A stretch of 64,000 bases of DNA from contig JAUCBJ010006750.1 in assembly GCA_032718475.1 (NCBI GenBank), positions 75,245 to 139,244 of the forward strand. The letters are read 5' to 3'. The number at the start of each line of letters is the position of its first letter. The stretch's first letter is position 1. The notes under the pieces are model-generated. The model saw nothing but the letters and a program-made list of their open reading frames with translations, made no database searches and had not been told where the DNA came from. The DNA is from Nemertoderma westbladi (taxonomy: Eukaryota > Animalia > Xenacoelomorpha). Positions 33,701 through 62,823 of the stretch are shown in pieces. A program made the translations under genes and the position numbers.

Positions 33701-34035
33701 CGGTCTCTACTTTACGCATTTTGGCCCCTTGTTTTTGTCGTTCGGCCTCTAGTTTACATATCTCGGCCTGTATTTCGGCCTCCTGTTGATGTCTTTCCTC
33801 TGCTAGTATGTCCTGTTCGATCTGTAATTGGACGTATTTGTCCTCCATACAGGCTTTAAGGGCCAATGCCCTCTGTTCTCGTAGCTGATCTCAGAGTGGC
33901 TGACCCCCTTGGGAGCTGCGCGCTGAACTGGATATCTCGCTCCTGGCGCTGGAGTGCTGGTGCCTCGAGGACCCGGTTCTCTTTCTTGGAACCAATGTCC
34001 TGGTACCGGAGGTCCGTACGGATTCCGCGTCCGCC
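27776..34035 (-). pseudogene. Element A gag-pol polyprotein (BEL/Pao), many stops and frameshifts
   Basis: Coiled-coil repeats AEIRKQEAE; gag core PKMEIRTFEGDP; zinc fingers CFRCLGTGH..C..C..HHTLLH; protease AFLDNGS; RT YVDD; RNase H TFSDAS and IPRLEL; NPADLSSRG; integrase SDNGTNF and PLTPNHLL. Confidence 0.96.
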
Positions 34036-35239
34036 TGTAAAAGCTTTTGTGGGATATAACTGGCCCTTTTCCTTCGTAATCCAGTTTTTCCCCAATGCGC
34101 TCAAATACTCTAAAACTGCCAGATTCGAATGGCACAATCTGCCCGCTGGTTGGCTGATTTGCTGTACGTATGGCCTCTTTGTTCTGTTCGATCAACCAAT
34201 CAGAGCGATGGTCAACCAATCAGAGCGATTCCGCCTTGTGTTAGCTACGGGCTTCAAAGGCTAGGGAGGTTTGGCATTTCGACATTCGTGGAACCTATGG
34301 AATCTGGAGCTCTGCCAATAAGAGCTTTTCCTCTTTGTGTTGAAAGCTACCTGCAACAGCTCACAGAATTCAGTGTGTGTTGGTTTTCCATGCCAGAACA
34401 TCGGCTGTGGAATGATTCTGTGTTTCAGACTTTAGCCAAACATTAGAACGGCTTTGATTACCGGAACATATAACTGTTATCAAACAAACCATACAAATCA
34501 TACCATACATACCTGGCACTTTATATCATACTGTGCATACCTTTCACCGCATTATTTTACTGTTATTTACTGTCGGTTATTAATTGTATCAGTTGATGGA
34601 ACATTGTTATATTTGGATAATATCGATAAAGAATCATAAAACCCCCATCTTCTTGATATACTGAAGGTAAGAGACCGGTTACATATAGCGATTGCAACTC
34701 ACATTATATTGGTTTTGGAGTGAATCTAATGCTATTTAATAGGCACTACATGAGTCAATTGCTGTTCTCTTTATATGTGATCAAATTCAGTGAAGGTCGG
34801 CAGATTGGTATGCAGTATTGTGCGGTAGTGTACATGAATGTTACCGATAACTAAGCATCTCCTAAAGAATGCGCCTTATACGTGAATCAATAGCCATCCC
34901 GTTGTGTTTAGTATAAGTCATAACTCTGTTTACATATTTAGAGCGCCACGTCCTAAAGGAACTGTTAATATTTCCCGAAAGTGAATAATATTTGTCAGAG
35001 ATTATATATTAACGATCAATCGAATAATACAGTAGGCTTACACTGCAATATAGGGTCAGAGCTTCCGAATCCAGTCTCCCGGGTATATCCAGCGGGTGAA
35101 TGGTCGCGCAATAGGCTGGCTTCGGCTAATGTAGTGTTTATTTGTATCAAATACTTGTCATAGGCTAAAGTCGATTTATAATCTAGAAGACATATAAATT
35201 TGGCAGGTTAAACTGCTAAAGGTCTTAAAAGCGCGAACA
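34036..35239 (+). repeat. 5' LTR of element B (1204 bp)
   Basis: Starts TGTAAAAGCTTTT and ends AAAAGCGCGAACA; has CCAAT boxes (ACCAATCAG twice); homologous to 44471-45684 and to the C LTRs. Confidence 0.93.
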
Positions 35240-35278
35240 ATAACAGTTATTGCTTCTTTATTGCAGTAAGCAATAAAG
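35240..35278 (+). promoter_or_regulatory. Non-canonical primer-binding site plus leader hairpin of element B
   Basis: ATAACAGTTAT directly after the LTR's CA is the exact reverse complement of 34470-34480. Hairpin CTTTATTGC-AGTAA-GCAATAAAG at 35256-35278. Function is inferred. Confidence 0.65.
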
Positions 35279-37151
35279 CTGAAGTACCGGTCGACCGGTA
35301 ACCTGTAGGCCTAACTACCTAACCGCCGGAACCGGTACTTACAATAGTATAGGTACTAGTATTATTTCGATTGTGATATATTGTATATTGTAGGCTGTTA
35401 GGGGATTAGGGATTGATCACCCCTTACTCCTTTGTATGGTTTACTTATTTCTGTCAGTTTTATTTACATGTAAGTTAATATTGAGCAGAAGACATGTAAG
35501 CCTGCTCAGATTGTACAGATAATTTGTAGGCTGGACTGTTGTCTGACTGTTATTAGGTCTGAAGACATTGCAGTGTGTGTAGAGTATCTGTCCGATAAAG
35601 TACTAGTTAGGAACGTGGGGGCAGCCAATGCTGTAAGGTAAACCCCCCCGAAAGAATAAGTCGTCCTACTCGGTTAGAACGCATACTAACTAACCATTTC
35701 GGAATCTGCATATACTGTAGTTTATTTAGGCTTGATAGTAGTCTGCCAGCGTTTGGTTTGTATTTTGTTTGAGTAGTCTGTACGGGTAGCGTAATATTTA
35801 TTATTCAGAGTTTATGCGATTACTCGCAACATTCATATCCCCAAGTTTATTCATACAGTAATTGTGCTTGTTATACATACCGTTATAGTTAAATTAACCC
35901 CGGTACTACATCAGGGCTGCTCGGCGTAGGTAAAGACTGGAGATTTTGTGCTTTGGTCACTCCGGCAGATACCGTGGTTCTTTTAGCTGTACAAGTATTT
36001 TAACTGCTGATTATTTGTTATACAAGTACTTGTACCTAATCTAGGGTTTAGTGTACAGTGCTTTCCGAAGGTAATTAGTGTGTGGGCAGTATATTTGTGT
36101 TGTAAAGTGGTTAATAGGCACGTTGGCTCTGGTAGGCCGCGGTAATTAACTTCTAGGTAGGAACACTCCGTGAAACATAACGTAGTACTTATAGCGATAC
36201 AGCTATAAGTCGTCAGACGGTGGTATTTTTCCTATCTGGACAACGCAGTATATTTACTACTGCTTATTATTTTCAAATACCGTAGTATCCTGTCTGCTGT
36301 AATAACCAGATTTTCTAACCCTTTGTTAGGCTGGTTTGTAGATTTCTTGTAAAATTACCCTAAAAATTTCGTACGTGTAATTTTTTGTTGTGTTTATTTA
36401 GAGATTGAATCTCACCCTTATTGTACGTAATTTGTAGATAAGTAACTTAGGAAAGTAGAATTATTTGTTTTAGTGTCAAATAAGTAGCACTTCACTGAGA
36501 GCGCACAGCTTTTGTGTCGTGATTACTTCCCAGAAATAATAACATCTATTTCAATGTTGTAACAAAACCCTCATACGGGTATATATATATATATTATAAA
36601 TCAACTCAAACCGATATATAAAAAATAGTAGGCCTGTCATACAACAATTAGGTCTTAATATCAGTTGGACTACTGCTTAAATAACGGTAATAAAGTAACG
36701 TAAAGTGACCAAGTAACCCCTAAAATTCAGAAATTCAATAATTCTAAAATAATTGACATACTGGTATTTACAATAGGCTTATTATATTTATTTCAATAAA
36801 TTTAGGCTGAACTTATATAACCGGTACCGGTATTCTATAATTGATTCTAGTTTATAATTATACTTATATACTATAAGTGTAAAGTTGTATACCGGTATTC
36901 ATGATAGGCTTATTATATATTTCTATATATTTGTGCTGAAATTATATACCGGTATTCTGTGACAAACCTATTTAACAATAATACTTATATATACTATAAG
37001 TGTATACCGGTATTCTGATACATTGTATATATATCACGTTGCTTAGAGTAACGATATTGGTAAATTAATTACTAGGCTAACATTTGACGCTGAATTACTA
37101 GACTTGCTTTAACTGTAATATAGCAGTAGGCATTCAACTGTACAAACAAAC

Positions 37152-39104
37152 ATGTCTGACACAACCCAATCACTGTCAGATAGTCTCTTAGAAAGTGTTA
37201 GAATGACTGTTAGACAGTGTCTTAAAAAGATAGAGACACCTGTACTCCCAGAACCTACCTCTAAATTCCCTTTACATAGCACTAAACTACCTGTGCCTAG
37301 TAGAACAACCCCTGAGACGGTTCCTGTCCTGGACTCCGAGCGAAATATCAATGATTTATTGCCCGTTGTCCCTCGTCTACCCGCTACTACGTTGATGGAT
37401 CCCGCTTCGGCGGTTGATTGGGTGGATGAGGGGCGGCGGGGGATGAATCTGCATCTGCTCGGGCAGATGCAGGAGACTGTCCACCAGCTCAAGGGAACAG
37501 TAAGGGAAAGTAGGTTAGAGTTGCAAGAAGTGCAGCAAAGCATCGCGTTAGAACGCGATAAATTAGTGAATATACAAAAGGGTATACCACCACCCTCTGT
37601 AACAATGTGTCAACCTGTTAGGTCTGAAGTATTTCATGCGCAAGGTGTGGAGCCTACACGCATCTATACTGCTAGTGAAGTAGAAACTCCTATAGTCAAC
37701 CCTATTAAGGGTAATTATAAACCTGTTGACAATTATATTCCATATAGACCTGATCATAATCCGAGAAATTTATATACTGATAACTCGATATTAAATAATA
37801 CGATGGCCCAAGAAAGTTTTACGCGTCAAATGGCTAGAACCGAAGCCCGTCAAGCGGTAAAGATGGGAGAGATAGTCAAGTTCAATGGAGATGAGATGAA
37901 ATGATTACCTTTTAATGAATATTACAAGGATAACATACAGAACTCTGTGCTATCTAACGGAGAAAAACTTAGATTCCTCATCGAGTGCTTGGAATGATCT
38001 CCCAAGTTAATGGCGTTAAAGTTTATTGGACATCCAGATGGATTAAGACAAGTTTGGGATACATTAAACATCAGGTATGGTAATAGGAATAACATAGCTA
38101 GGTATTTGTATGCGAAATTAATGGCGCCCCGAAAGTTTCTTAGCAGCAGGATTATAGAATTATCTGATGAGATCCAGGAAATCTGTAGACAGCTAGATTG
38201 GCTAGGTAAGTCTCATGAATATGAGAATTCTATGGTTGTAGGAGCCTTAGCATCAGCTTTGCCAAAGGGTGGAGTAGGTACTTGCTGGGACAAAAAGGTT
38301 CTCTATTTGATGGAACAACAACAAAGAGACCCTACCATGGCTGATCTCATCTCATTCTTAGATGGAGAGGTAAAATTACAGCTCCTAAAGCAGTCCCAAG
38401 AGAAGACCCTGGAGAACAAGGTTAGTGAGAAACCCGTTTCTAGGAGAAAGGTAACACCAGTGTGTTATACCGACGAGGGCGAAAGCCAGGCTTCTCAAGA
38501 AGAAGACAGCGGGAAAGGCACAGCAAGATCTTACTATGACAATAAAACACCAAAGGACGTAAGTAAATTTAAGTCTCGAACCAGTGACAGGAGAGAATAT
38601 ACAACAAAAACTCCTCCCACGTCTCCTAAAAGAATTCATGGAAGAAAGCCCGAGGAAAGAACGATCGTGCACCACAAAGCACAGGTTAAAGTAAGTAACA
38701 TCAAACCAAAATGTGTGTTGTGCGACGGGCCCCACCGTTTAAGTGCGTGTAATGAATTCCTGAGGAAATCATTAAAAGATAGATGTGAAGTCATATGGGA
38801 TAAGCGGTTGTGTTATAATTGCCTCAGACGAGGACACCAACGGCGAACCTGTTACTCCGACGCGAGGTGTGCTAAGTGCGGTGCAAAACATCATATCTTG
38901 TTGCACACTGAATTCGATCGAAACAGCCTGAGTCAGGTAAGTGAGTCCGAACTACATGTCCAATTCAGTGATGTGAACGACACTGACCAAAGTTCTCAAA
39001 TGGAAGGATTCTATACGGACGAATTCTCCGACCAAGACGAATCCTGTTACCTAATAAATACCGCAGTGTATCGAGCACTTACGTATGAAAAAGACACCGA
39101 CAGT
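37152..39104 (+). pseudogene. Element B gag (in-frame N-terminal deletion, two premature TGA stops)
   Basis: Near-identical to the C gag (MSDT start, IVKFNGDEMK, CVLCDGPH..C, CYNCLRRGH..C, CAKCGAKHHILLH). TGA at 37902 and ~37995 where C has W and G. Confidence 0.93.
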
Positions 39105-40366
39105 GCCTAAGGAGGTGAGGTCTCTATAGGGGTGCTGTCAACAGGCGGCGGCGGACTCGTGAGGGTCTGGGGGCACATTAAATTTGTGTCTATAGTGCAA
39201 GGGAGTTACTGAAGGCCCTCGTGTCTAGCGAACCATGAATCAACATGGTGCCATGGTACCATCTAGTCGGCCTGTTGCCGTACTGCTAGTCCTGTACACA
39301 GTAGGGGTGGTGGCTTAGTGTGATCTGTGGTTTATGTGGTCTATGTGGTAGGCCTATGTTTGGTATGTATGAGTTGACCAGACTCTTTACTGTCTCCGAT
39401 CGGTTGCCAAAACGTGTCTTTTCCCAGGGTAGCACTATTGGAATGGAGGTGTTGCATCGGAATGGACAGGTTTCTGATGATTCTGTTGGTACTACTATTG
39501 GAATGGAGGTGGCACCCGGAATATCGGCTGCAAGGAGGGGTTGGTGTTGTAGTGTGGTCCGAGTGAATGATACTCTGGAATCTGTGGTTTGTGTGTGTAC
39601 GTGGTATACGTGAGTGTATGTATGGCCACTGCGAGTGAGTATGGGAACCCTTACCGGTTGGTTCAGTCGCCGCTGGTTATTAGTAGGACCATATCTTTAC
39701 TGCGCCCCAGCATATTTTGTGCACACAAAGTTATTATGCCCTGACGGCAAAATAAGGTACTCTCGACTCTTTATCAGTCGATACAATTTTGTCCCCTCTG
39801 ATTTTGTCACTGATATGTCTTTCCCGATTATGTCCTCTGTGTGTGCATGGTATGCGTCAGATTTGTGTTTACCGTTGTATACTTGATTTCGTGAGCATCT
39901 ATTGAGTACACGTGTACAGTGACTGGTAAGTGGTGACTTGTTCCTAGCTTTCGAGCTAGTCAGTATTGTTTGCGGAACCGACTTCCCCTCAATACTGATG
40001 GCGAGGCGGGTGAAAATGTGTCAACATTCCAGGTTGGGTAGCGCAAGCCCACTTGGGACAAGACCGTCGGTTTGGCTCAAGGGCGACCTTGATGCTCGAT
40101 CGCTATCGACTGGTCCACCCGCCGGTTGACTCTCTGAGTTCGCTCAATGTACAGTCAGGCCACAGTAAGTTGACAGTAGCCGACCATCTGGCTACACCGA
40201 CGAGCTGTGCCGGTGTGATCGGGGGATTGAAAATTGAACCCGGGAAGCATCGGGCTACCCTCCGGCCCAGTCTGATATAAACATCAGTCGGACTGGCCCC
40301 AAGGGTGGTGGGAAAGCGTCCGCCTCGTGGGTGCGCCTCGGGGAGGAGCCCAGAAGGACGTAAGCG
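39105..40366. other. Unclassified ~1.26-kb insertion between gag and protease of element B
   Basis: Absent from C, which reads ...GAT AGT GAG CTC... continuously; B resumes at GAGCCCCCA (40367). No TSD, terminal repeat or recognisable ORF. Confidence 0.8.
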
Positions 40367-41407
40367 GAGCCCCCACTAAATACTCCCAAAGGACAACCAT
40401 CTTGGAAAGCACCAACTTCCAATGTAGGAATCCGAGAATTTCCTGTAGTGCAGTTGAGAGTCCATGGTCCTGACAAAAGTTATATAGTGAACGCCCTTCT
40501 CGACTCTGGCAGCACAGGAACATTCATTGACAAAGAACTAGCTGAAGACATCTTTGCTGGACAACCCAAGTTCCGAACCAAGTTAATCATATCAGGAATT
40601 ATGCAGGTTTGGAAATCTACAGTAACTACAGATTACTACGTAGGCGCGTTGTCCACCCCCCAGGATGAACTAGGAGAACACAGTATAAGGTCAGTAAAAA
40701 TGGTGGCGATAAAGAACTTCGCTACCAGTCAAGGGGAACCTTATAACTGGGATGAGGATGACTTCACCCATCATCATAAGATACCTAGATTCAACACAGA
40801 CTACCCTGGAGTGCAAATACTCATCGGCCAAAATGCGCATGAGGCGCTTGAGACATTGGAGAAACGGCCTGCTCAACCGCAACCACTACAAGTCTATGCG
40901 GGAAGAACTAGAGTGGGTTGGTACTTTACTGGCCCTTCCCGTAGAACACTCATGGAAAGGTTGCCCAAAGAACGGGTCTACCACGTAAGTAAATGGGAAG
41001 TGGAGAGCAGTGAGGTGGACGATCCAACTGAGGGAATACCATACTCCTCAGATAATGACGATATTAATTCTAATGAAGATCAATGGAGACATTGCCTTGG
41101 GACGATTAATCCAGCCGACATCGCTTCCAGAGGAGCAGCTCCTCAAGAACTGATAGATACTCCGGACTGGCTAAGTGGACCCGACTTCCTAAGTAAAGAA
41201 GAAGATGAATGGCCTTCTCAGCTTACCACGGCGGAGATTAGACAGGCCAAGGGAGCGGAGAAAGTAACACAACAACTCAATCGCCCAGCTGGTCGTTTAT
41301 GTTTACTGGAAAGAGATCGAAAACTGTCCGGACACTATGGAAGGCAAGATACTCTTCCCATGACCACCTCCCTAATCCAAGAAATATCTAGGGACTCCAT
41401 AACGTAA
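40367..41407 (+). pseudogene. Element B aspartic protease fused in frame to short post-RNase H and integrase C-terminal remnants
   Basis: ALLDSGSTGTFI protease motif. Junction ~41066 leads to DQWRHC..INPADIASRG; junction ~41266 leads to TQQLNRP..LCLLE and the natural stop. Confidence 0.9.
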
Positions 41408-43060
41408 CAACATACGGAGTGGGTGTGTGACTATATTATTTTGCATATTTTATTATTTTTATATTTATGTATGTATTATTATGTAATTTTATTATAATCG
41501 TTTTCTTTAATTTTATTTAGTCGAATATTATTTTAGCAATTATTTAGTAGATTAGTGCAATATATTAATGTTTATTACTTAATTACTTATATATTATATA
41601 TTTAGTGCGACGGCGAGAAATAATTATTTTTCTCTTTCCTTACTGTCCGTATCATATTATAAATACGTGACTACAGTAAGATGAAATATCCGTACTTATT
41701 AAAGTACAATAAAGCTCCTACTATATTCAAGTATTATTGGTAAGCAGAGTATTAGGAATGCAAAGTTCAGATCCTCGTGTCTCGGCTAAACCAAGCTCTG
41801 GGTAGACCTTGGAAACGACTTGCCTCTTCTCACTGACATTGCTTCGTGCGATATTGCTCTCATACCGTATATTAAATAATACATATAGTAGCGTGATGTC
41901 CCTTTAACAGTAGCGTAAAACGCAAAATAAATCTGTTAAACCCTTTGACCATCTGTAATTCTAGTCGATTAAGATATCGCGGCACCCACCGATATACTTG
42001 AAAGACAAATTCTAGAATCAGTGGTTAACGTCCCCAGACAAGTTCTGGAATAAATCGGTGCCCATCTCAAATATTAATTATTAATATTTCAAATCAATAA
42101 TCAAAATCTGTAAAATTCAGATCCTTCAACAATTTCTAGTCGATTAAGATATCGTAGCATTTACCGATATTCTTAAAAAGACAATTGTCATAGAATTAAG
42201 GATCTTGTGTCCCCAGACATGTTCTGGAATCAAAATATGTCAATTTAATTTCAAATAATAAAATTTCAGGGAATAAATTCTAAATTCATGCCTTTTAATG
42301 AATTTAATAAATTGCCATTTTTACGCAATTTATAACATTCCCAAAATTCCATTAATTAATAGATCAAGGGAGCGGAGATTTATCTTATTATGCGTATGAG
42401 TGTGCGAAAGTCTCCCAAACATAGTCAATAGCCGATAAAATTCATAAAGTCATGTATAAAACAGAACATTGACTATTAAAGAATTACTATTAAATAACAT
42501 CCCAGATCTGTATGCATTGGAATTACCCTAATTCTACCGCTAGCTTTGCATAATGTCACCATAGCAACAACCACGCTAGAATTAGAATTGAGTTAAAAGA
42601 ACAATAGAAAGCTTGTCCCATTGAATAGCATAGGGAATAAATAGTGCACTGATAGTATCCAAGGATACATAATAATAAGTGACATTCTGGAAGGCATTGA
42701 CTAACGGACAAGTGACCCGAGTGTGTGTAATTTGTGACAAGTTGTGTGTGTGGTACTTGTGAGTTTATAGGCGAATGTTACTACTAAGGTGTGTTTACAG
42801 TAGCTAGTCGCAATCGTAAAAGTAACCTAACTCTCCAAGGAAAACCTGAAGTACATCTAAGCCTTTGGGACGGACAGTCGAGTGACTTGTGCCGGTTGTC
42901 GTTGTCGTTGTGCGGCTACGTCGTTGGCGAAAGTACAGCGGCGACGACACATCGGCGCTGAGGATCTCGTACTGTCCGGGGGTTAATTGGAGTAGGCAGC
43001 GACGCTCGCTAGCCTGAATATAAACTCCTTATAATGTGGATAAACTCATATATAGCAGAC

Positions 43061-44440
43061 ATGATGGAGTTGATAGCAGATGTTCTTGGTATCGGGGAGC
43101 GATATACTCTACTTTTGCAAGCGTTTGTTGATAGCTTAATACGCGGCGACGTTAGTCCAACTGCTGCGGAGGACGATGGTCGTTATATCGAACCGCCAAT
43201 GTCCCAAGAGCAGCTCGCGCGCGAGTTGGACTATAGAAAATTCGCTGCTCGATATACGCAGCGTAATGGTACGTATGTGGTCTTCTTAACTACTGGTCAT
43301 CCTATCGATTTACACAATACGGACTATGTCGACTATATATCCTGCCCAGCGGAGTCGGAACCATAAACTGAAATTCGAATGCGAAAATTCTATTCGAAAT
43401 CGACTCGAAAGAAAAGACACTAAAGAAACAAATGGACGCGGTAACTCCAACGTATATTTGGAATTCTTGATAGAAGCATTGTAACAACAAATAAATATCA
43501 CCCGCGTTTCCCCTACCAGACGTGCGTCTTTGGTATTATTACGATAAATGTCCTAGACCCAGCCAATAAACGGAAAGACATAAACATCCACGGAAACGTC
43601 GTGTTAAACACAGTTGTGTTCGTTATATTTACTGGAGTTTCGAGCGAAACTTGTTTGACGTATCACCTATGCTCACTCGGCTCTAACGATCCTAGAGTAA
43701 ACCTACGATCAGAGTCCCGGAATACTCGGTCAAACCTCCTCATTCCTTAGTTGGACCTCAGACCTGCGATCCTGGTGGTGTCGCGGATCCTCGCGGACGG
43801 TATTCACTGTTCAAGATCTAGTGCTACCCTAACAATTAATCGGTAACACTCCGACAGTGATTTCTAGCTAGCCGCCCATCTTACCTAGCTGGATTATGAC
43901 GCAGACACCTAATATCATTATCCAACCGTATGGTCGTCCCGTTTAACGCGATACAACCCTTCATCAAAGTGAAGGAGAGCGTTGTACGAAACGAGTTAAA
44001 CGCTATTCTATAAAGATCAAAAAAGAAACCTGCGTTTGTTCAGATAAACGTAAGTTATAACAGTAAGTCCAATCGATAAACGAATTGTCTTTATCTCAGT
44101 TCGATTGTGAAATCCAGAATCTCTAAGAAGATATCGCACTTAGACAACCCCATTCTCTGCGAGAGTTTTTGGATGAACGTATCCAGCTACGAGCGGAGGA
44201 AAATCAGCTCGAGGAGAAGCATATCGAAACGGCGGATACCCCGACCACAATCCTACACCTTCTGATGCAATCATATTGCACCCTTCACCCAGGAGTTATG
44301 GCCCTCCTAGTAAAGTGGCTCCCCCCAAAGAGAAAAAGACTCTTGCTAGCCTCAAAAAACTGCGTAAACGCCGTCTGCGTAAGAAAGACTAACTGTTTAG
44401 AGTATCTTTATGTTTTAGAAACTGTGATTTTTATATTTTA
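43061..44440 (+). pseudogene. Element B ORF3 remnant, unknown product
   Basis: Homologous to C 46838-48441; many third-position synonymous differences in the first ~90 codons and in the HPRFPY..TCVFGII block. Confidence 0.6.
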
Positions 44441-44470
44441 TAGACTGAAAATCCCATTTTCTGGGAGCGG

Positions 44471-45684
44471 TGTAAAAGCTTTTACTGAATTGTCCGGTTA
44501 TTTTTCCTTATTTTTCCCGTAAAGTACTCTGTAGTTGGTTTACCAGGCATAAAAAGGCCGTGTCCTTGCTGTACTGGTGTTTTAGCGGACATAAGAGCTA
44601 TTTCTTCTGTATTTGTACTTTAGAGGACATAATCCGTAATTCCGTGACGTAAAAGCTCGATACTCTTGAAAACAGTGTCGCTACCATGACGACAGCTAGC
44701 AGCTGATATTGCCACGTCGACGTTTCTTTGTTTCTCTGTTCTCTCGTTGTTCAGGTTGACCAATCAGAGCGTTTGTTGTCTTTGTGTTGGAGGTATATAC
44801 AGAAACTCAGTAGTTCAGTGTTATGTTTTTGCCCAGAGCCTAAGAACCGGCTTTGGCACCTCCGTGTTTTAGTTTTTAGTCTTACACTAGTAGGTTTAAT
44901 TATAAAGGGCATATATCCTTTAACTACCTGACTCATGGAATCACTGCTAACTGATCATACATACTGACTGCTGAAACATTGCAAACTCATAACAATCAGT
45001 GTTTTCATTGTTGTTTTATACTGCTATTTACCGTCAGTTCTTCATAATATGGTTGATGAATTATTATATTTGGAATAACGATAAATAACCCCGAAACCCA
45101 ATATTCTTGATATACCGAAGGTAAGAGAGAAGGGTTACAGATAAACGATTGTGACTTATGTTAAAGTGGTTTGAAGTGAATCTAATGTTATTTGATAGAC
45201 CCTACATGAGTCAGTCTGTGTTCCTTTTATATGTGACTAAAATCAGTGAAGATTGGCAGATTAGTGTGCAGTATTGTGCAGCATTGTGTATGAGTGAGTC
45301 TGTTAAAGAAGCAATTCCTAAAGAATGCGCCATATATGTGAATTATAATTAAGCCATATCGTTGTGAGTAGTTTAAGTCATAACTCTGTTTATATAGATA
45401 AAGCGCCACGTCCTAAAGGAACTGTTAATATTCCCGAAGGTGAATAATATTGTCAGAGATTATATAATACTGTCAGTCGAATAATACATTAGGCTTACAT
45501 AGCAATAAAATTAAACCGTCGAACCCAATCTCCCGGGAATATCCAGCGGGTGAATGGTCGCGCACGGATTGGTTTCGACTAGTGTAGTGAATCAAATACT
45601 TGTCATAGACTAAAAACTGATTTAATATCTAGAAGACATCTTAATTTGGTGGGTTAAACTGCCAAAGGTCTGAAAGCGCGAACA
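44471..45684 (+). repeat. 3' LTR of element B (1214 bp), preceded by PPT-like CTGGGAGCGG (44461-44470)
   Basis: TGTAAAAGC...GCGCGAACA; the same PPT precedes the 3' LTR of C. Confidence 0.92.
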
Positions 45685-46811: not shown

Positions 46812-46837
46812 CCGCTCCCAGAAAATGGGATTTAATT

Positions 46838-50135: not shown

Positions 50136-53100
50136 TTACGTTGAGGAGTCCCTAGATGTTGGTTGGATTAGGGAAGTGGTCGTGGGAAGAGTATCTTGCC
50201 TTCCATAGTTTCCGGAGAGTTCTCTGTCTCTTTCCAGTAAACATAAACGACCGACTGGGCGATTGAGCTGCTGCGTCTCGAAGACAATTCCCGGTTTCTT
50301 AAAGTTACGTCGCATGACGACGAGTTCTACCGATCGCACTAAACCATCATCTGAGATATGAGTCTCGATGATACGACCTGTCTGCCACTGCGTACGTGGA
50401 AGATCTGAATCCACAATAAGGACCATGTCTCCGGCGCTGACGTTTTCTTGCTGCGCAAACCACTTGGTTCGAAGTTGTAGCGTCGGCAGATAATGTTTTT
50501 CGAAATGGTCAGCGAAACGACGGGATAACAACTGCATAAGTTACCAAGTTTGCCGGCAGTATTCGTCTCCGTCCGTGATTTCCGATTGTGGGAGCATGGC
50601 TGCAGGTTTCTTCAGTAGGAAGTGCGCGGGTGTTAGCGCTTCCAGGGAATCGGGACTCGATGAGACTGGCATAAGCGGTCTCTCTTTGAGATAGGCGGCG
50701 ATTTCCTCCATTAACGTCCGCAAAAGTTCGTCGGTGAGATACGCGCGGCATGGCACTATAAAGTGAAATGCGGTCTTCACGCTCCTGATTAATCTCTCCC
50801 AACTTCCTCCCCACTAAGGGGCGTCGGCGGCGTTGAAGGTCCAGCTAGATGCTGTTACCCTTAGCTGATCGTCCACCTGTCTTTGGTTCCAATCTTTGAC
50901 GTAAGCGTTGATTTCATTGTGGGCGCCAATGAAGTTCGTTCCCTTATCAGATCTCATTGTATTACTAGTTCCAAAGCGAGCGATCTGTCGGCGTAAGCTC
51001 AGTATGAAGCTGTTGGTAGACAGATCGTTCACCATATCGAGATGGATAGCTCTACAAGTCATACAGACGAAGATGACACACCATCTCTTGACTATAGTCC
51101 TAGCACGATATACTTCAATAGGGCCAAATAAATCCACACCGGTATTAGTAAAGGGTGGTTCATAGAAGCTTACTCGTTCCCTAGGTAATTCTGCCTCTCA
51201 CTGTGTTAAAGGCCTACTGAATGCTTTCCTACAGGGTATGCAGTTCCTAAGAACTTGGTTCAGAGCTCTACGGGGTTTATGAAAATAATAGCGAGTTCGA
51301 ATTTCGCTAAGAACTCGTTCTCTACCAGCATGGTAAAGCTTACTGTGAACATCTACAATCATCTTGATTTGTATTTCAAGATTTCTAATGAGTATGGGAA
51401 ACTTAGTGTCAAAGGATAATGGAGCATTAGTTAGTCTTCCTCCAACACGTATCAACCCATCTATCATTGTGCTAGAGAAACGATCCCTTAAGCGCATCTG
51501 TGGATTTCTCAACAACAGGAAATACTTATCGGAATCCTCATAGCATTGTAGGAGTCTCAATATCTGCTTATTGGTTTCTTCATGCTCCTGGTAACTGATC
51601 TTCTCCTTCAGAAACCTGTCTGATATCTTGTATTTGGGAAGATCTTTAACAACATGGACCTGCGCAGATGTCAGTTTAGCGGTATCACTAGTGGTCTTCG
51701 TCCTGGAGTATTGATGATGAAAACATCGCTTTAAATATGTAACGGCCTTACAGAGCCGATTCCAGGAACTATAGTGATGTATCACTCTCTGCAGGAGAGG
51801 TGGGAGTCCTTGCGAGACGTCTGGTGTTCCAGATTTCCAATCTCTCTCTCTGATTTCCACAACAGACTTATTTGTGGCTGGGGTTTTGGATCCAAAACGT
51901 CGTCTCCGGAAGTGTTTAGTACAGACAGATCTATCACGGGTTTAAATAACTTCGATTTACTCGCCCGGGTTTTAGGTTTGACTTTCTCCGCTCCCTTGGC
52001 TTGTCTAATCTCTGCCGAGGTAAGATGAGGAGGCCATTCATCCTCCTCCTTTCTTAGGAAGTCGGGTCCACCTAACCAGTCTGGAGTATCTATCAGTTCT
52101 TGTGGAGTTGCTCCCCTGGAGGCAATGTCGGCTGGATTAATCGTCCCGGGGCAATGTCTCCATTGATCTATCTTCGTGCGACTAAGTATAATGGCTACTC
52201 TGTTGGTAACGAAGACGCTGAACTGACAGACTTCATTGGTTATATACTCCAACACGAGTAAAGCATCGGTCCAATAGACAGTTTTCTCCAGTGGATAGTC
52301 TATCTGTTCTGTAACATTCCGGCCGATGGCTGTAGCGTATAGAGCCGCTTTTAACTCCGCTCTAGGAACCTTCAACTTGTTGTTAATCAAGGCCTTAGAG
52401 GTAACTAAGGCGACCTTAATTCAGTCCGGAGTTTCAACTCTCTAGTAGGCTACTATACCTATTCCCATATCGCTGGCGTCTCCAAACACGTGGAGTTGAT
52501 AGGAATACGTGGGGAGAACATGACCAAAATATGAACGGGAAATTATAAAGTTCTCGATGGATGGTAGAGAATCTTCCCATTTCATCCATTTCTTTAATAG
52601 TTCTCCCTTAAGTGGATCGTCCCACGAGTGGTTTTCAAGCCACATTTGTTGTACTAAACTCCGAGCAATCAATATAACTGGGCTAATAAATCCCAATGGA
52701 TCGAAATAAGTGCTCAGGATACTTAGACAAATCCGCTTAGTCCGAACTGGATTATCTCTCTGCTTTAGTTGGAAAAACAGAATATCTCTCTCTGTGTCCC
52801 ATTTCAAACCAAGCGTCTTGGTTTATGGAAGATTGTCCTTGATTAGGTCTAGATCTTTAACTCCTCGGTCTTCTACCGGGATTGATTCCAGAAACTCACG
52901 GGAGTTGATGGTGAATTTAGTTAATCAAAATCCACCTCTTTTCAAGCACTCTACCGTTCCTTTGGCGACATCAATGGCTTCTTCCACTGATGGGAGGGAC
53001 TTTAAATTGTCGTCCATGTATATATCCCGTTTGATGTTGTCGATAACCTCTTTGGAGAAGGCGTCCCGGTTGTCATCAGCAGTGGTACGCACTACTGAGC

Positions 53101-56100
53101 AGGCGTTTGAGGGGCTCGAGATGATCCCAAAGGCCTGGATGGTCATCCAGTACTCCACCGGTTTCTGGTTGAGGTCTCCTTCCAGCCACCACAGAAATCG
53201 TAGGCTGTCTTGATCCCTATCTAGCGCCTTAACTTGTAAGAACATGCCTTCTATATCGGAGGCGAAAGCGATCGAATATTGTCGTAATCTTAAGAGTATT
53301 CCCAACAAGGATTGGAGTAAGTTGGGTCCCGGCAACAACTCCAAGTTAAGTGATTGGCCCATGTAGTGGGCGGAGCCGTCAAATACTACCCGAACTTCGT
53401 TGGGTTTACCGGGTTTGGGAACGTAATGATGGACTGATAGTACGTTCTCTCAGTTATGGGTGTTTCTTCCGGTACTCGCTCCGCATATCTTTTATTTATG
53501 AATTTCTTCAGCTGTGTCTTGTACATCTCTTTAGCTGAAGCATTTGCCGTAAGGCGTCGATGTAATTGCGCGATTCTTTTCTCCGCCAAGGGTCGGTTGT
53601 TTATAAATTTAGGTTCTTGCTTTCGAAATGGCAGACCAATTTCATACCTCCCTTAATCTCTAAGGAAACGTGTAGTCATTGCCTGGATCTGCTTGGCTCT
53701 TTCTTCTTCTACCAATAGGGCCTTATCGTAGGAATTGGGCTCTGCAGCCTCTTGAGTAAAGAATCGTACGGCGTGTTCATCGCGAGTCTTCACGTTGTAA
53801 CGATCTATCACTTCATTCAGTTCGTCGTTGTAATTGACTTGTCCCGCTGGATGGATGAGGTGACATAGGTTCACTTGGTTTTGCCAAGTTTCATTTTCCG
53901 TAAGGAGGTCGATGGTATTCTCCTCGTCAAATAGTTGGTGGATATCGTCATTATCTGAGGAGTATGGTGTTCCCTCAGGTGTGTCGTTTCCCTCACTGAT
54001 CTCCTCTTCCCATTCACCCACCTGGTAGACCCGTTCTTTTGGTAGCCTTTCCATGAGAGTTCTACGGGAAGGTCCAGTAAAGTACCAACCCACTCTAGTT
54101 CTTCCCGCATAGGTTTGCAGTGGTTGCGGTTGAGCAGGCCGTTTCTCCAATGTCTCAAGCGCTTCATGCGCATTTTGGCCGATGAGTATTTGTACTCCAG
54201 GGTAGTCTGTGTTGAATCTAGGTATCTCATGCTGCTGGATGAAATCGTCCTCATCCCAGTTATAAGGTTCCACTTGGATGGTAGCGAAGTTCTTTATCGC
54301 CACCATCTTTACTGACCTTATACTGTGTTCTCCTAGTTCATCCTGGGGGGTGGACAACGCGCCTACATAGTAGTCGGTAGTTACTGTAGATTTCCAAACC
54401 TGCATAATTCCTGAAAGGTTCAACTTAGTTCGGAACTTGGGTTGTCCAGCAAAAATGTCTTCGGCTAGTTCTTTGTCGATGAATGTTCCTGTGCTGCCGG
54501 AGTCAAGGAGGGCGTTCACTATATAGCTCTTTTCTGACCCGTGGACTCTCAACTGCGCTACGGGAAATTCTCGGATTCCTACGTTTGAAGTTGGTGCTTT
54601 CCAAGATGGTTGTCAGTCAGGAATAGTTAGGGGGAGCTCACTATCAGTTTCAGTATCATATGTAAGTGCTCGATACACTGCGGTGTTTATTAGGTAACAG
54701 GATTCGTTTTTGTCGGAGAATTCATCCGTGTAGAATCCTTCCATCTCAGAACTTTGGTCAGTGTCGTTCACATGACTGAATTGGACATGTAGTTCGGGTT
54801 CACTTACCTGACTCGGGCTGTTTCTTTCGAATTCGGTGTGCAGCAAGATATGATGTTTCGCGCCGCACTTAGCACACCTAGCATCTGAGTAACAGGTTCG
54901 CCGTTGGTGTCCTCGTCTGAGACAATTATAACACAACCGCTTATCCCACATGACATCACGTCTATCCTTTAGGGATTTCTTTAAGAATTCATCACACCCA
55001 CTCAAGCGATGGGGCCCGTCACACAATACACATTTGGGCTTGATGTTACTTACTTTAACCTGTGCTGTGTGGTGCACACTTGTTCTTTCCTCGGGCTTTC
55101 TTCCATGAATTCTTTTAAGAGACGTAGGAGAAGTTGTTGTTACCTGTTCTCTCCTGTCACTGGTTCGAGACTTAAATTTACTTACGTCCTTTGGTGTTTT
55201 GTTGACATAATAAGATCTTTTGGTGTCTTTCCCGCTGTTCTCCTCGTGGGAGGTTTGGCTTTTGCCGTCGTCTGTATAACACACTGGTGTTACCTTTCTC
55301 CTAGAAACGGAATTTTCACTTACCTCACTTTCAGGAGTCTTCTCTCTAGACTGTTTTAGGAGTTGTAATCTTACCTCTCGGTTTAAGAATGACAGAAGGT
55401 CCGTCATGGTTGGATCTCTATGTTGTTGGTCCATCAAATAGAGAACCTTTTTGTCCCAGCGAGTACCTACTTCACTCTTTGGCAAAGCTGATGCTAAGGC
55501 TCCTACAACCATAGAATTCTGGTATTCATGAGACTTACCCAACCAGTCTAATTGTCTACAGATCTCCTGAATCTCATCGGAAAACTCTATAATCCGGCTG
55601 CTAAGGAACTTTCGGGGCGCTACTAATTTCGCATACAAATACCTAGCTATGTTTGTCCTATTACCATACCTGATGTTTAGTGTATCCCAAACTTGTCGCA
55701 ATCCATCTGGATGTCCAATAAACTTTAACGCCATTAACTTGGGATGTCCTTCCAAACACTCGATGAGGAATCTAAGTTTCTCTCCGTTAGATAATACAGA
55801 GTTCTGTATGTTATCTTTATAATATTCATTAAAAGGTAACCATTTCATCTCATCTCCATTGAACTTGACGATCTCTCCCACTTTTACCGCTTGACGGGCT
55901 TCGGTTCTAGCCATTTGACGCGTAAAACTTTCTTGGGCCATCGTGTTATTTAATATCGAGTTATCGGTATATAAATTTCTCGGATTATGATCAAGTCTAT
56001 ATGGAATATCATTGTCAACAGGTTTATCGTTACCCTTAATGGGGTTTACTATAGGAGGTTCTACTTTACTAGCAGTATAGATGCGTGTAGGCTCCACACC

Positions 56101-58361
56101 TTGCGCATGAAATACTTCAGACCTAACAGGTTGACACATTGTTACAGGGGGTGGTGGTATACCCTTTTGTATATTTACTAATGTATCACGTTCTAACGCG
56201 ATATTCTGCTGCACTTCTTGCAACTCTAACCTACTTTCCCTTACTGTTCCCTTGAACTGTTGAACAGTCTCCTGCATCTGCCCGAGCAGGAGATTCATCC
56301 CCCGCCGCCCCTCATCCACCCACTCGACCGCCGAAGAGGGAGCCGCCAACGCGGGTAGACGAGGGACAACGGGCGACAAATCGGTGATATCTCGCTTGGA
56401 GTCCAGGACAGGAACTGTCTCAGGGGCTGTTCTGCTGGGCACAGGTAGTTTAGTGCTGTGCAAAGGGAATTTAGAGTTGGGTTCTGGAAGTACAGGGGTC
56501 TCTATCACAGAGGGGGTGGCTTCGAGAACAGGCCTAATTATTTCAGGCTCATCTACTATAGTAGGGAGTCTTTTTACTCTAATAATTTGGTCTGTGGGTT
56601 CTGTACTACCTAAGTCCGTGCTAGCTAGCTGCCTTCTCACAGCTGGGGGCAAATCAGGCAATTTCTGACGGTGGGGCATTCTTCTAGGCCTGCTGGGACG
56701 AGATCTATTTCCTCCGCCTTCAAGATCTGTTATATCGCCTTCATCCGATGATGTAAAGCCCTGTCGCTTGGGAGTAGATTGACTTATCATCTGCATCTGA
56801 CCAGCTGTTATCTGTTTATCTATGTAGTCTTGCTTCTCTTGAAGATTTTCCAACTCTAGTTGGGTGATCTCTTCAGACGCCCTCCGTTCTGCTTCTGCCA
56901 CTGCTATCTTTCTTTCCGCTTCTGCCGCTTTTCTTTCCGCTTCTGCCGCTGCCATTGCCGCTTTTCTTTCCACTTCTGCCGCTTTTCTTTCCACTTCTGC
57001 CGCTTTTCTTTCTGCTTCTGCCGCTGCCTCTGCCACTTTTCTTTCCACTTCTGCCGCTTTTCTTTCCGCTTCTGCCGCTGCTACTGCCGCTGCTGCTGTC
57101 TTTCTGTCTTCTATACGTTTTTTCTTTACTTGTTCTTCTTGGACACTAGCGATGCAGCTGCTTTCATCAAATTTAGCTTGGTTCGCAGCTAACATTTCCG
57201 CATCTAATGCGTCCAACACAAACTTGGCTCCTTCCCTATTAGGGCGAAGTCCAGCCAGCCGTCTCCTCAACTCTTCGTCTCCTATAAATCGTTGATAGTC
57301 CGACAGATAGATGTCAATAGCATCCTTCTTCTGAGGTTTCTCTAATGTAACCTCGCTTTCCACTTGAGAAAAGGCAGCGTCTGTTGATTCTCCATGGGTT
57401 GAGCGCTCAGTTAGCTGAATTTTCCACTGGGTCGTTCCTTGAACCTTGAGACTCACCCGTTGGAACCAAGTCTTGACGGCAACTTGCAACGACGTGTCTT
57501 GGGTTCTCTTCGAAGCTTCCTCAAAGGCTGATAGGAGGAGTCTGATTCTTAGGATTCTTACTCGAACTTGATAAAGCAGCTCTCCCTGCTCTTGAGGTCC
57601 TTGGTGTTGTTGAAACAGTTGTTCCTCTAATCGCTCCAAAGAGCTGAAGAATCCCTGTACATATCCTGCTGCCGACCTCTTCCACACAGCTGGATCACTA
57701 GTGTCCTTTGTCACTCCATCCTGTATAAGTCCTCCCAGGCAGCTTCCGATAAGTTAAACGGGAGTCCGGGTCCGGGGAAGTTCCATTGCGTCTCGACAAT
57801 AGTCTTCAGTTCCTCCCTTGTGTATCCCGCATAACTGTCCTTGGTCGATCGCTTACTTCTCGCCCAATCGATTTGGTGTTCCTCCACCGCAATCAATACC
57901 CTAGTGAGTACAGCTGCAGGAAGAATGAGAAGTGGATCCGAATAAACCGCATCTGCCATCCTTGCTCCGCTACTACTACTACTAGGATCGGCATGCTGCA
58001 TTGCAGCTGCATTTTTAAGAATGCTGTGCCGGCTTGTCAACAAAATTGCTCCGCGCTCGGGTGTCAACTCTACAGTATCTGAACTACTGGAGCTATCGGG
58101 CCGCTGAGAAATAAGTTCTCGGCTCGGGTGTTGCTGTTGTTTAACAGCTGCCTCTTGGTCCCGCTTGACTTGAGCCCGAGTGCCTCTGATAGACCTACGG
58201 TGTTTGACTAGCCTAGGGTCTGATACTACTACTGGAGGGATGACCTTTCTTACAGTAGGAGGTGAGTTGAACTTCGGTCTCAAACGTTCCGCACTCCTAT
58301 CTGGATCACAGATGGTTGTATCTAGGAGACTGTCTGACAGGTTTTGCTTTGTGTCAGACAT
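50136..58361 (-). pseudogene. Element C gag-pol polyprotein (BEL/Pao), about a dozen stops and frameshifts
   Basis: ATG at 58361 (MSDT, as in B); frameshift ~57714; 1033-aa gag with AAEAERK coiled-coil and three Cys/His fingers; protease ALLDSGS; RT SDIEGMFLQV and YMDD; RNase H HVFGDAS; integrase DLFGP, SDKGTNF and ALTPAHFL. Confidence 0.97.
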
Positions 58362-58959
58362 GTTTGTTTGTACAGTCGAATGCCTACTGATGTAACTACA
58401 GTTAAAGCAAGTCTAGTAATTCAGTATCAACCGTTAGCCTAGTAATTAATTACCGATATCGTTACTCTATGTAACGTGATATATATACAATATATTAGAA
58501 TACCGGTATACACTTATAGTATATATATAAGTATTATTACAGACTAGGTTTGTCACAGAATACCGGTATATAATTTCAGCACAAATATATATATATAATA
58601 AGCCTATCGGGAATACCGGTATACAGCATACACTTATAGTATATATAAATATAAGTATAATTATAGACTAGAATTAATTACAGAATACCGGTATATAATT
58701 TCAGCTTAAATTTATAGAATAAATATATATATATAAATGAATGAATATATATATAAGTAAACCTACTATTTTATAAATCGGTTTGAGTTGATTTATAATA
58801 TATATATACCCGTTTAATGGGTTTTGTCAATATTTGAAATAAATGTTATTATTTCTAGGTAAGAAGTCACTTCACAAAAGCTGAACGCTCTCAGTGGAGT
58901 GCTACTTATTGGACACTAAAACAAATAATTCTAATTTACTAAGTTACTTATTACTACAA

Positions 58960-59980
58960 ATTATGTACAATTGCGGGGTGAGATTACAATCTCTAAATAA
59001 ACACAAAAATTACACGTACAAATTTTAGGGGTAATTTTACAGGAAATCTACAAACCAGCCTAACAAGGGGTTAGAATTTCTGGTTATTACAAACGGACAG
59101 GATACTACGGTATTTGAAAATAATTAAGCAGTAGTAAATATATTGCGTTGTCTAGATAAGAAAATACCACCGTCTGACGACTTATAGTCTCTAGCTTTAC
59201 AGCTCTATAAGTACTACGTTATGTACCCGGTGTGTTCCTACCTAGAAGTTAATTACCGCAGCCAACCATAGCTAACGTGCCTATTAACCACTTTACAACA
59301 CAAATATACTGCCTACACGCTAATTACCTTCGGAAAGCACTGTACACTAAACCCTAAATTAGGTACAAGTACTTATACAATAAATAACCAGCAGTTAAAA
59401 ATACTTGTACAGCTAAAAGAACCATGGTATCTGCCGGAGTGACCAAAGCATAAAATCTCCAGTCTTTACCTACAAATTACTTACGATACGGGTGAGATTA
59501 AATCTCTAATTAAACACAACAAAATATTACGTACGAAATTTTTTTAGGGTAATTTTACAGGAAGTCTACAAACCAGCCTAACAAAGGGTTAGAATTCTGG
59601 TTATTACAACGGACAGGGTACTACGGTATTTAAAAATAATAAGTAGTAGTAAATATATTGCACTGTCCAGATAGGAAAATACCACCGCCTGACGACCTAT
59701 AGCCGTATCGCTATAGGTACTACGTTATGTATCACGGAGTGTTCCTACCTAGAAGTTAATTACCGCGGACTACCAGATCCAACGTGCCTATTAACCACTT
59801 TACAACACAAATATACTGCCTACACGCTAATTACCTTCGGAAAGCACTGTACACTAAACCCTAAATTAGGTACAAGTACTTATACAATAAATAACCAGCA
59901 GTTAAAAATACTTGTACAGCTAAAAGAACCACGGTATCTGCCGGAGTGACCAAAGCATAAAATCTCCAGTGTTTACCTAC
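58960..59980. repeat. ~510-bp diverged tandem duplication in the 5' leader of element C
   Basis: GGGTGAGATTA...AAATCTCCAGT.TTTACCTAC at ~58977-59473 and ~59490-59980; single copy in B (~35925-36420). Confidence 0.9.
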
Positions 59981-60664
59981 GCCGAACAGCCCTGATGTAG
60001 TACCGGGGTTAATTTATCTATAACGGTATGTATAACAAGCACAATTACTGTAGGAATAAACTTGGGGGTATGTATGTTGCGAATAATCGCATAAACTCTG
60101 AATAATAAATATTACGCTACCCATACAGACTACACAAACAAAATACAAACCAAATGCTGGCAGACTACTATCAAGCCTAATTAAACTACAGTATATGCAG
60201 ACTCCGAAATGGTTAGTTAGTATGCGTTCTAACCGAGTAGTACGACTTATTCTTTCGGGGGGGATTCACCTTACAGCACTGGATGCCCCCACGTTCCTAA
60301 CTAGTACTTTATCGGACATACACTCTACACACACTGCAATCTCTTCAGACCTGACAACAGCCAGACAACAATACAGCCTACAAATTATCTGTACAATCTG
60401 AGCAGGCTTACACGCCTTCTGCTCAATATTAACTTCCAAATAAATAAAACTGCCAGAAATAAATAAGCTCCAAAAGAAACAAGGGGTGTACTGTACAGTC
60501 CCTAATCTCTTAAACAGCCTACCAATATACAATATCACAATCGAAATAATACTAGTACCTGTACTGCTGTAAGTACCGGTTCGGGTGGTTAGGCAGTCAG
60601 GCCTACAGGTTACCAGTCGACCGGTACTTTTGCCTTTATTGCCTACGTTGCAATAAAGAAGAAT

Positions 60665-61594
60665 AACTGTTAATGTTTCCCGAAAGTGAATAATATTTGT
60701 CAGAGATATTATAGTAACGAGCAATCGAATAATACAGTAGGTCTACACCGCAATAAGGTCAGAGCATACGAATCCAGTCTCCCTTAACCGTGGGTGAATG
60801 GTCGCGCATAGGCTGGCTTCGGCTAATGTAACTTTATGTGTATCAATATCAATGCACAATTCATACCACACACGGTACATACCATATCATACTATACATA
60901 CCTTTCACCGCATTATTTTACTGCTATTTACTGTCGGTTATTAATTGTTATCAGTTGATGAATCTGTTGTTATATTTGGAGAATATCGATAAATAATCAT
61001 AAAACCCCAATCTTCTTGATATACTGAAGGTAAGAGGGACCCGTTACATATAGCAATTGCGACTTACATTATAGTGGTTTTGGAGTGAATTGAATGCTAT
61101 TTCATAGACCCTACATGTGTCAGTTGCTGTTCTCCTTATATATGACTAAAATTAGCGAAGGTCGGCAGGTCAGTGTGCAGCAGTGTGCGGTAGTGTGCAT
61201 GAGTGTGACAGATAACAAAGCATTTCCTAAAGAATGCGCTTTATACGAAAATCAATAGCCATCCCGTTGTGTTTAGTGTAAGTCATAACTCTGTTTACAT
61301 ACTTAGAGCGCCGCGTCCTAAAGGAACTGTTAATATTTCCCGAAAGTGAATAATATTTGTCAGAGATATTATAGTAACGAACAATCGAATAATACAGTAG
61401 GTCTACACCGCAATAAGGTCAGAGCATACGAATCCAGTCTCCCTTAACCGTGGGTGAATGGTCGAGCATAGGCTGGCTTCGGCTAATGTAACTTTATGTG
61501 TATCAAATACTTGTTATAGGCTAAAGTCGATTTATAAACTAGAAGACACCTAAAATTGGCAGGTTAAACTGCTAAAGGTCTAAAAGCGCGAACA
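60665..61594 (+). repeat. Inverted LTR fragments of a sister element inside the leader of C
   Basis: 60665-60846 duplicates 61325-61506. 60847-61594 is the 3' ~750 bp of a family LTR ending GCGCGAACA. A perfect 52-bp inverted repeat links 61543-61594 and 61665-61716. Confidence 0.92.
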
Positions 61595-61626
61595 ATAACT
61601 ATTACAACTTACTATACGACTAATTC

Positions 61627-61664
61627 GCACATATTAGCTAAATATGTGCTATTAAAACTATTAA
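61627..61664 (-). promoter_or_regulatory. Non-canonical primer-binding site plus leader hairpin of element C
   Basis: Minus-strand TTAATAGTTTTA right after the LTR's CA is complementary to TAAAACTATTAA in the LTR (62405-62394). Hairpin GCACATATT-N5-AATATGTGC at 61627-61649. Function is inferred. Confidence 0.65.
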
Positions 61665-62823
61665 TGTTCGCGCTTTTAGACCTTTAGCAGTTTAACCTGC
61701 CAATTTTAGGTGTCTTTTTGTATATCAATTATTTAATGTACTGAAGGTACATCAGCCAGAGCCAGCCTGTGCGCGACCATTCACCCACAGTTAAGGGAGA
61801 CTGGATTCGGATGCTTTGATAGTGATTGCAGTGTAGACCTACTGTATCATTCGATTGATCATTAATATATAATCTCTGACAATATACTTACTTTCGGGGA
61901 AATATTAACAGTTCCTTTAGGACGTGGCGCTTTAAGTATAAAACAGAGTTATGACTTATACTAATCACAACTGGATGGCTACTGAGTTTCGTAAAAGGCG
62001 CATTCTTTAGGAGATGCTTTATTAACCTTCACACTACTTCACACGACTTCACACTACTTCACACTACTGCGCACTGATCTGCCGACCGTCACTGAATTTG
62101 ATTATATATAAGGAGGATCGCAACTGACACATGTAGGGATTATGAAATAGCATTCAATTCACACAAAAACCACTATAATGTAAGTCGCAGTTGCTACCGG
62201 TAAACCTGTTCCTCTAACCTTTAGTAATCAAAGAGATTGAGGGTTTTATGATTATTCATCGATATTCTCCAAATATATCAGCAATATATACTAACATAAC
62301 ACCAATTAATAACAGAACCAAATAATGCGGTGAACAGTCAGTATGTGTAGTTGAATCGCGTTGCATAGTGCAGCGGTGTGGCGGTGTGCTGCGTTAATAG
62401 TTTTACGTTCCTTTGATCAAAGCCATCTGATGTTTCTGAGGTTTAGGTCAAAGTCTGAAACTTCCACAGAAGTACAGAAGAATCCCAAGCCGGTGTTCTG
62501 GGCTTGGAAAGATACACACACTGACTGAATTGCGTGAGTTTCTGTAGGTATGGTACAACACAAAGTAAAAATCGCTCTGATTGGTCGAGCGAGCCAAACA
62601 AAGAACAAAGAAAGCTCCACGCTGGCATTAAATCAGCTGACAGATTGCGTCATCTGAGTCATCTTTTAGAGTATTAAGCGAATTGCGGAGAAAATGGCTT
62701 GTTATGTCCGCTAAAGCACACATGCAGACATAGCGGGTAAAAATGGCTTGTTATGTCCGCTAAAACACCTACACAGTATATTGCGGAGTAAAATGGCTTG
62801 TTATATCCGCAAAAGCTTTTACA
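61665..62823 (-). repeat. 5' LTR of element C (1159 bp)
   Basis: Minus strand TGTAAAAGC...GCGCGAACA; CCAAT box near 62578-62586 and a TCAGT initiator-like motif near 62520-62530. Confidence 0.96.

Follow-up and report, generated by a model that had tools for sequence, protein, structure and literature searches.

The long terminal repeat (LTR) retrotransposon Tf1 is primed by 11 nucleotides (nt) of its own RNA, and a stem in U5, the unique 5′ region of the LTR, is required. According to two reports, elements of the Tf1/sushi type have no transfer RNA (tRNA) site; instead, part of the 5′ LTR is complementary to their primer site, and the reverse transcriptase (RT) cleaves off the self-primer (PMC4600332, PMC5341516). 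The same reports describe self-priming for Tj1 of S. japonicus (PMC4600332) and for Tf2 (PMC5341516), and a third does so for Tf1/sushi, Tcn1 (plant Ty3/gypsy) and TAR copia (PMC6317226). For the Belpaoviridae (BEL/Pao elements), the International Committee on Taxonomy of Viruses (ICTV) gives a primer site of 18 nt complementary to tRNA-Arg or tRNA-Gly and describes replication as poorly understood (PMC8742986). The listings of literature searches, which covered open-access articles without supplements or Repbase notes, showed no BEL/Pao precedent for self-priming. The list of self-primers in the excerpt of PMC6934838 has no BEL/Pao entry, the excerpt of PMC8220671 has generic mentions only of priming-related terms, and a term count in PMC3118150 and PMC554778 gave zero occurrences of PBS (primer-binding site), tRNA and priming. 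Here we analyze 64,000 nt of the Nemertoderma westbladi contig JAUCBJ010006750.1 (positions 75,245 to 139,244; hereafter the window), in which a nest of BEL/Pao retrotransposons lies downstream of an array of a 63-base-pair (bp) satellite. A first-pass annotation had proposed that one BEL/Pao family in this nest primes from its own LTR.

This family is represented in the window by four LTR types or fragments (B5, B3, C5/C3 and D). Its LTRs, its primer sites and the LTR stretches complementary to them (partner sites) are located as follows, in window coordinates:

34036..35239, plus strand: B5, 5′ LTR of element B, TG...CA, 1204 nt; inserted into element A
34370..34374, plus strand: TCAGT initiator-like motif, candidate start site, 55 nt past a CCAAT box (34315); conserved in B3 and C5
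34470..34480, plus strand: B5 partner site (predicted self-primer); next base C
35104..35236, plus strand: predicted U5 terminal stems beside the primer site (35104-35109 with 35231-35236, a hairpin enclosed)
35240..35250, plus strand: B primer-binding site (predicted), no TGG; complement of 34470-34480
35256..35278, plus strand: 9-bp hairpin directly after the B primer site, from sequence and fold
44471..45684, plus strand: B3, LTR of a third type; tail-to-tail junction with C3
44913..44923, plus strand: B3-type partner site; complement missing from the window, but present in an X3 contig where the primer site is expected
45685..46811, minus strand: C3, 3′ LTR, 99.1% identity to C5; final 32 nt missing
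46382..46393, minus strand: C3 partner site
60663..60673, minus strand: E, internalised primer-site variant heading the coding interior; partner missing from the window; 9 of its nt are shared with a conserved U5 block
60847..61594 (start approximate), plus strand: D, inverted LTR fragment, from about the partner-site 3′ end to the LTR end
61595..61605, plus strand: primer-site variant after D; partner cut off
61627..61649, minus strand: 9-bp hairpin directly after the C primer site; sequence unrelated to the B hairpin
61653..61664, minus strand: C primer-binding site (predicted), no TGG; complement of 62405-62394
61665..62823, minus strand: C5, 5′ LTR of the minus-strand element, 1159 nt
62394..62405, minus strand: C5 partner site (predicted self-primer)

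In element B, the 11 nt at 35240-35250 are the exact reverse complement of positions 34470-34480 of its own LTR (11 of 11), and in the minus-strand element, C, the 12 nt at 61664-61653 are the exact reverse complement of 62405-62394 (12 of 12), with the same stretch present again at 46393-46382. The two partners fall in the same alignment columns, at LTR offsets of 435 and 419, and the distance from primer to partner is ~760 nt within an LTR of ~1.2 kilobases (kb). The sites differ at positions 1, 5 and 10 and the partners at positions 11, 7 and 2, so that all three changes are mirrored. Pairing begins in both elements at the first base past the terminal CA of the LTR, which is primer geometry, and all four post-LTR sites (B, C, D and E) lack an initial TGG. 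The exact complementarity, the shared LTR position, the mirrored changes, the primer geometry and the lack of TGG in B and C had been pointed out in the first-pass annotation and were recovered here, as was its caveat that the B site is quasi-palindromic; the C site is not. B5, B3 and C5 each have a TCAGT motif 98-123 nt ahead of the partner, the CCAAT and TCAGT motifs together being conserved 98-180 nt upstream. The anatomy needed correction in two respects: B is probably a chimera, and the C site is followed by ~1 kb of rearranged LTR pieces.

The matches are specific, since the B site finds no more than 7 nt in the other LTRs and the C site no more than 6 nt outside C5 and C3. By composition, the expected number of chance matches per LTR is 1.0e-3 for B and 3.9e-4 for C. 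Among shifted control windows of the 5′ untranslated region, matches as long as the real ones occurred in 2 of 300 for B and in 0 of 300 for C; under looser controls, with offsets and splice junctions allowed, the counts were 4 of 100 and 0 of 100. The young LTR pair C5/C3 carries the partner of the adjacent site and not that of the internalised site E, and no partner for the D or E site is present in the window. The complementarity is real and well beyond chance. A fortuitous match in AT-rich sequence, for which the quasi-palindromic B site and the control windows equal to it in length could be cited, has a negligible probability, as the matches occupy the same aligned position in two LTR types, their changes are mirrored, and a prediction from a third type was met.

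Like Tf1 and Tf2 (Schizosaccharomyces pombe) and Tj1, the window family has no tRNA site and a site complementary to its own 5′ LTR. Those elements are Ty3/gypsy, whereas the window family is BEL/Pao, another superfamily, and it departs from Tf1 in the ~760 nt that separate primer and site in a 1.2-kb LTR, in a primer that, as read from sequence alone, is possibly internal rather than the capped 5′ end, and in a site that is polymorphic among coexisting subfamilies. For Tcn1 (Ty3/gypsy) and TAR/Houba/Osr-1 (Ty1/copia), PMC6317226 uses a criterion of at least 10 nt of complementarity from 0-5 nt past the 5′ LTR, and B and C both fall within it. These are plant elements of other superfamilies, and BEL/Pao would be the third with this signature, which is best read as a variant, within BEL/Pao, of a known self-priming mechanism.

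Membership in BEL/Pao rests on pol. The family has TG...CA LTRs with an upstream polypurine tract, the minus-strand copy has the order gag-protease (PR)-RT-RNase H (RH)-integrase (IN), and Pfam identifies the BEL-typical domains DUF1759 (E 7e-12), Peptidase_A17 (E 5e-4) and H2C2 (E 7e-8). In its 1.2-kb LTRs, polypurine tract, gene order and these three domains it agrees with the ICTV description of the Belpaoviridae, but it is without the 18-nt tRNA-complementary site given there, with a TGG start in none of the four post-LTR sites (PMC8742986); the tRNA site is a descriptive criterion, not a taxon-defining one. A pol of Ty3/gypsy chromovirus type is not present, the domains being those of BEL/Pao, and the family stands outside the Tf1/sushi group, which it resembles in mode of working only. 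PF05380 or PF03564 occurs in seven of eight RT homologues, and the eighth has no annotation. In the tree, the window RT forms a long, unplaced branch, in a reference set without the named clades (Pao, BEL, Sinbad, Suzu, Tas). Acidic motifs of RNase H and RT, predicted to be catalytic, are present in the minus-strand copy. A search for gag homologues returned none at E 1e-10, and the LTR pattern had 0 matches among metagenome and genome contigs. Six matches of a 16-mer in viral contigs were regarded as chance, as there was no wider similarity.

Independent copies of the family were obtained as short contigs from four runs of three studies, three of the runs being used for the comparison of sites; these contigs cannot phase a partner with its site, and their summed depth is not a copy number. 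One of three predictions made in the first-pass annotation was a B3-type primer site, derived from 44913-44923, that is absent from the window. This site was found, unphased, at the expected position in an X3 contig that aligns from 35248 and whose 8 loose letters are the first 8 of the predicted sequence. The probability of such a match by chance is 3e-5 by composition and about 2e-3 over the 77 rows with loose ends, the match having been seen among the rows listed (18 of 77). A second mirrored change, likewise unphased, is found in run X2, with G at site position 1 in ten contigs and C at the last position of the partner in one. Depth dips over the primer site between conserved flanks, and the site is polymorphic: an A makes up 43-70% of the depth at 35247 and 42-68% at 35251. 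Both variants fit a B3-type site; the A at 35251 would form a twelfth pair, its counterpart being the T directly ahead of the 11-mer in B5, B3 and C5. Around the partner, contig coverage of B5-like sequence in run X1 drops from 20455 to 32 just after it, and four of five joints just after it leave at 34479-34489.

A polymorphic site between conserved flanks would be hard to reconcile with one tRNA. Half-tRNA priming without TGG is known in Ty1/copia lineages, as stated in PMC6317226, and an RNA of the host, such as a tRNA fragment, could in principle prime here, with the LTR match being secondary. This is very improbable, because the four window variants and further ones in the contigs differ at positions 1, 5, 6, 7, 8, 10 and 11, and every testable site variant matches its own LTR type. 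The window holds no tRNA gene, and positions 34000-36000 have no Rfam match. The primer very probably derives, in some form, from the element itself.

The signature was also found in distant BEL/Pao families from metagenome contigs. An RT alignment search gave 79 loci of 45-52% identity, 33 of them with a direct repeat at element distance, and the test was applied to the 17 that have an apparent LTR end; after exclusion of one that lacks a terminal CA, the remainder represent 12 families. GT-AG junctions were allowed in the pairing search, and the offset was widened stepwise from 0 to 4, with the same offsets in the controls; the LTR end of L061 was reset by hand. Eleven of the 12 families have no TGG and pair with their own LTR over 10-15 nt, nine of them across a GT-AG junction (L009, L011, L019, L024, L025, L044, L055, L080 and L082). 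In eight of the nine, a 10-15 nt match spans the junction (donor GTAAGT in six; controls as good in 0-2 of 100), the predicted LTR introns measure 67-305 nt, the site starts 0-4 nt past the LTR, and the primer ends 74-193 nt from the LTR end. In the ninth, L011, one LTR retains an intact donor side and the other an intact acceptor side. L051 and L061 show contiguous matches of 10 and 12 nt (controls 0 of 100). A TGG-type site was considered for L054, the twelfth family, and rejected because the TGG there is a start codon, belonging to an open frame at a contig overlap; the family is assigned to neither group. Eleven loci in which the LTR end is not defined were scanned freely, but chance matches of 11-12 nt made these scans non-discriminating, and they are not counted.

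Splicing would build the primer in the nine junction families. The window family shares with the distant families the lack of TGG and the pairing with its own LTR; the nine pair only across GT-AG, whereas its partner is contiguous, at offset 0 and ~760 nt off, and a splice-built primer was rejected for it on this ground. The distant families are an analogy, not proof of common origin, and they are not independent and may come from few hosts. Three further loci (L063, L070 and L071) have repeats of 3.6-8 kb at a spacing of ~6.1 kb, which suggests tandem arrays of whole elements or assembly circles.

Self-complementarity, compensatory change, primer geometry, the B3 prediction and the recurrence of the signature in distant relatives all support self-priming, as the first-pass annotation had suggested. 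By analogy with Tf1, a tRNA-independent mechanism with release of the primer by RNase H is likely. Transcription would begin no further downstream than the partner, whose copy in the transcript would anneal to the primer site after the 5′ LTR. The RNase H of the element would cut at the 3′ end of the partner, before a conserved C (the next base in B5, B3 and C5) that would face the terminal A of the LTR unpaired. RT would extend the new 3′-OH into U5, and the removed 5′ piece would be restored from the 3′ LTR after strand transfer. Plus-strand copying of the primer, for which Tf1 is reportedly a precedent, would rewrite the site from the partner, and site and partner would therefore stay matched while drifting. 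A single cut would be enough for either an internal or a capped-terminal primer; an internal one, with a start near TCAGT ~100 nt upstream, is slightly favored because of the conserved CCAAT and TCAGT motifs and the splice-built primers of the relatives.

Covariation would fit equally well if the primer derived from the element with no RNase H cut of its 5′ end, being supplied instead by the 3′ end of the same RNA, if it terminates at the partner within the 3′ LTR, by another copy of the genome or by a small LTR-derived RNA. No AATAAA is conserved across the three LTR types, and a primer acting in trans would make the 760-nt span and the unstable fold irrelevant. Termination at the partner is contradicted by the lack of a conserved polyadenylation hexamer just upstream, by following sequence that is A/C-rich and not GU-rich, and by an AATAAA or ATTAAA downstream of the primer end in seven of the eight scored splice-type relatives. 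We consider this group of explanations unlikely. The pairing could also be a structural long-range helix (packaging, dimerisation or a translation switch), with priming achieved otherwise, for example via the post-site hairpin. A 9-bp hairpin of differing sequence follows the site in both B and C, and PMC6934838 mentions a hairpin proposed as primer site in fungal GalEa Copia elements. However, pairing begins at the first base past the terminal CA in both phased pairs, as priming requires and structure does not, and no alternative primer site is visible; a purely structural role is quite improbable.

Predicted folds were also considered. RNAalifold on four copies gives U5 stems whose pairs are mostly invariant. 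The pairing probability of site and partner is predicted to be ~1 only with ≤15 nt kept upstream and a 3′ end ~60 nt past the LTR. Folding was rejected as evidence for the start site, as the signal vanished with a longer 3′ end, and in these models it gives no robust support for the helix and does not place the start.

Several points weigh against RNase H-released self-priming. Site and partner, ~760 nt apart, form a weak duplex (-10.1 and -8.8 kcal/mol), and its predicted pairing is 0.01-0.11 from a TCAGT start and 0 when B is extended to 35550. Phased pairs number only two (B and C), and 2 of 300 control windows equal the B match taken alone. Contigs give unphased evidence, with the key B3 prediction resting on one contig, and the relatives are only ~50% identical in RT to the window sequence, whose long branch is unplaced. 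The proposed start site, cut and extension are drawn by analogy with Tf1/Tf2, and independence from tRNA is judged from the site sequences.

We lean slightly toward a wider view, in which self-priming is normal in a broad part of BEL/Pao and has at least two architectures, splice-built and contiguous; here, an internal primer would act across ~760 nt, and mutual rewriting of primer and site in each cycle would let many primer sequences coexist, free of host tRNAs. Self-priming in this family would by itself extend the mechanism to a third LTR superfamily, account for primer sites missing from annotations, and remove the dependence on host tRNAs and on silencing by tRNA fragments. It also gives a sharp prediction for the cut position and for the RNA attached to strong-stop DNA.

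The remaining features of the window are the following:

5-20579: 63-bp satellite, ~306 copies
23300-34035, minus strand: element A, a second BEL/Pao family (DUF1759, RT, H2C2, DUF5641); interrupted by B5
35240..44470, plus strand: interior of B, pieces of gag and protease, without the RT-RNase H stretch that the minus-strand element has
44463..44470, plus strand: polypurine tract ahead of B3
46812..60673, minus strand: interior of the minus-strand element with gag (DUF1759, zinc knuckles), protease, RT, RNase H and integrase; several broken frames and a 3.3-kb extra 3′ region
60678..60846, plus strand: inverted U5 fragment, 98% identity to part of D

Element B is probably a chimera or recombinant of two insertions with different LTR types, since B5 and B3 can be aligned only over the last ~690 nt, at 79% identity. 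This last part of the LTR (34555-35239) is kept across types at 77-89%, and the first part is not. CCGCC/CTGCC flanking B5...B3 was rejected as a target duplication, the right flank being C3 sequence. Downstream of the C site, a hairpin lies within 47 nt, followed by the inverted D and the inverted U5 fragment, and the coding interior begins only at 60673, behind the fourth site variant, E. An LTR end is joined to an inverted U5 piece at 45684/45685 and again in an X3 contig (joint 34907-35239); as judged from these junctions, members of the family insert in opposite orientation into the LTRs of other copies.

Within U5, a block of high conservation (34959-34967) has a 9-nt match to the E-type site and is located at the inversion junction (60677). 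Along the element sense strand from 61605 to ~60850, 11 nt complementary to the D site are followed by antisense U5/R that ends ~3-14 nt from the predicted cut. This segment (minus strand) resembles an inserted self-primed minus strong-stop cDNA with an 11-nt primer, a likeness weighed lightly because it was noticed post hoc and a 6-nt repeat sits at the junction. A donor-like GTAAGA at 34667-34672 is shared by B5, B3 and D, and a pyrimidine tract with an AG lies just after the primer site (35256-35278); speculatively, splicing between the two would yield a messenger form that lacks the primer site.

Downstream of the integrase, both orientations have ~3 kb of additional sequence (46812-50136, minus strand; 41560-44470, plus strand), with broken open reading frames (ORFs) and short tandem duplications. 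A segment of 1.26 kb in B (39106-40366) is missing from the minus-strand copy and has no other match in the window. Element A has several additional 3′ ORFs without a Pfam match, and the satellite is interrupted at 1173-2231 by a fragment bearing an RT (RVT_1, E 8e-24).

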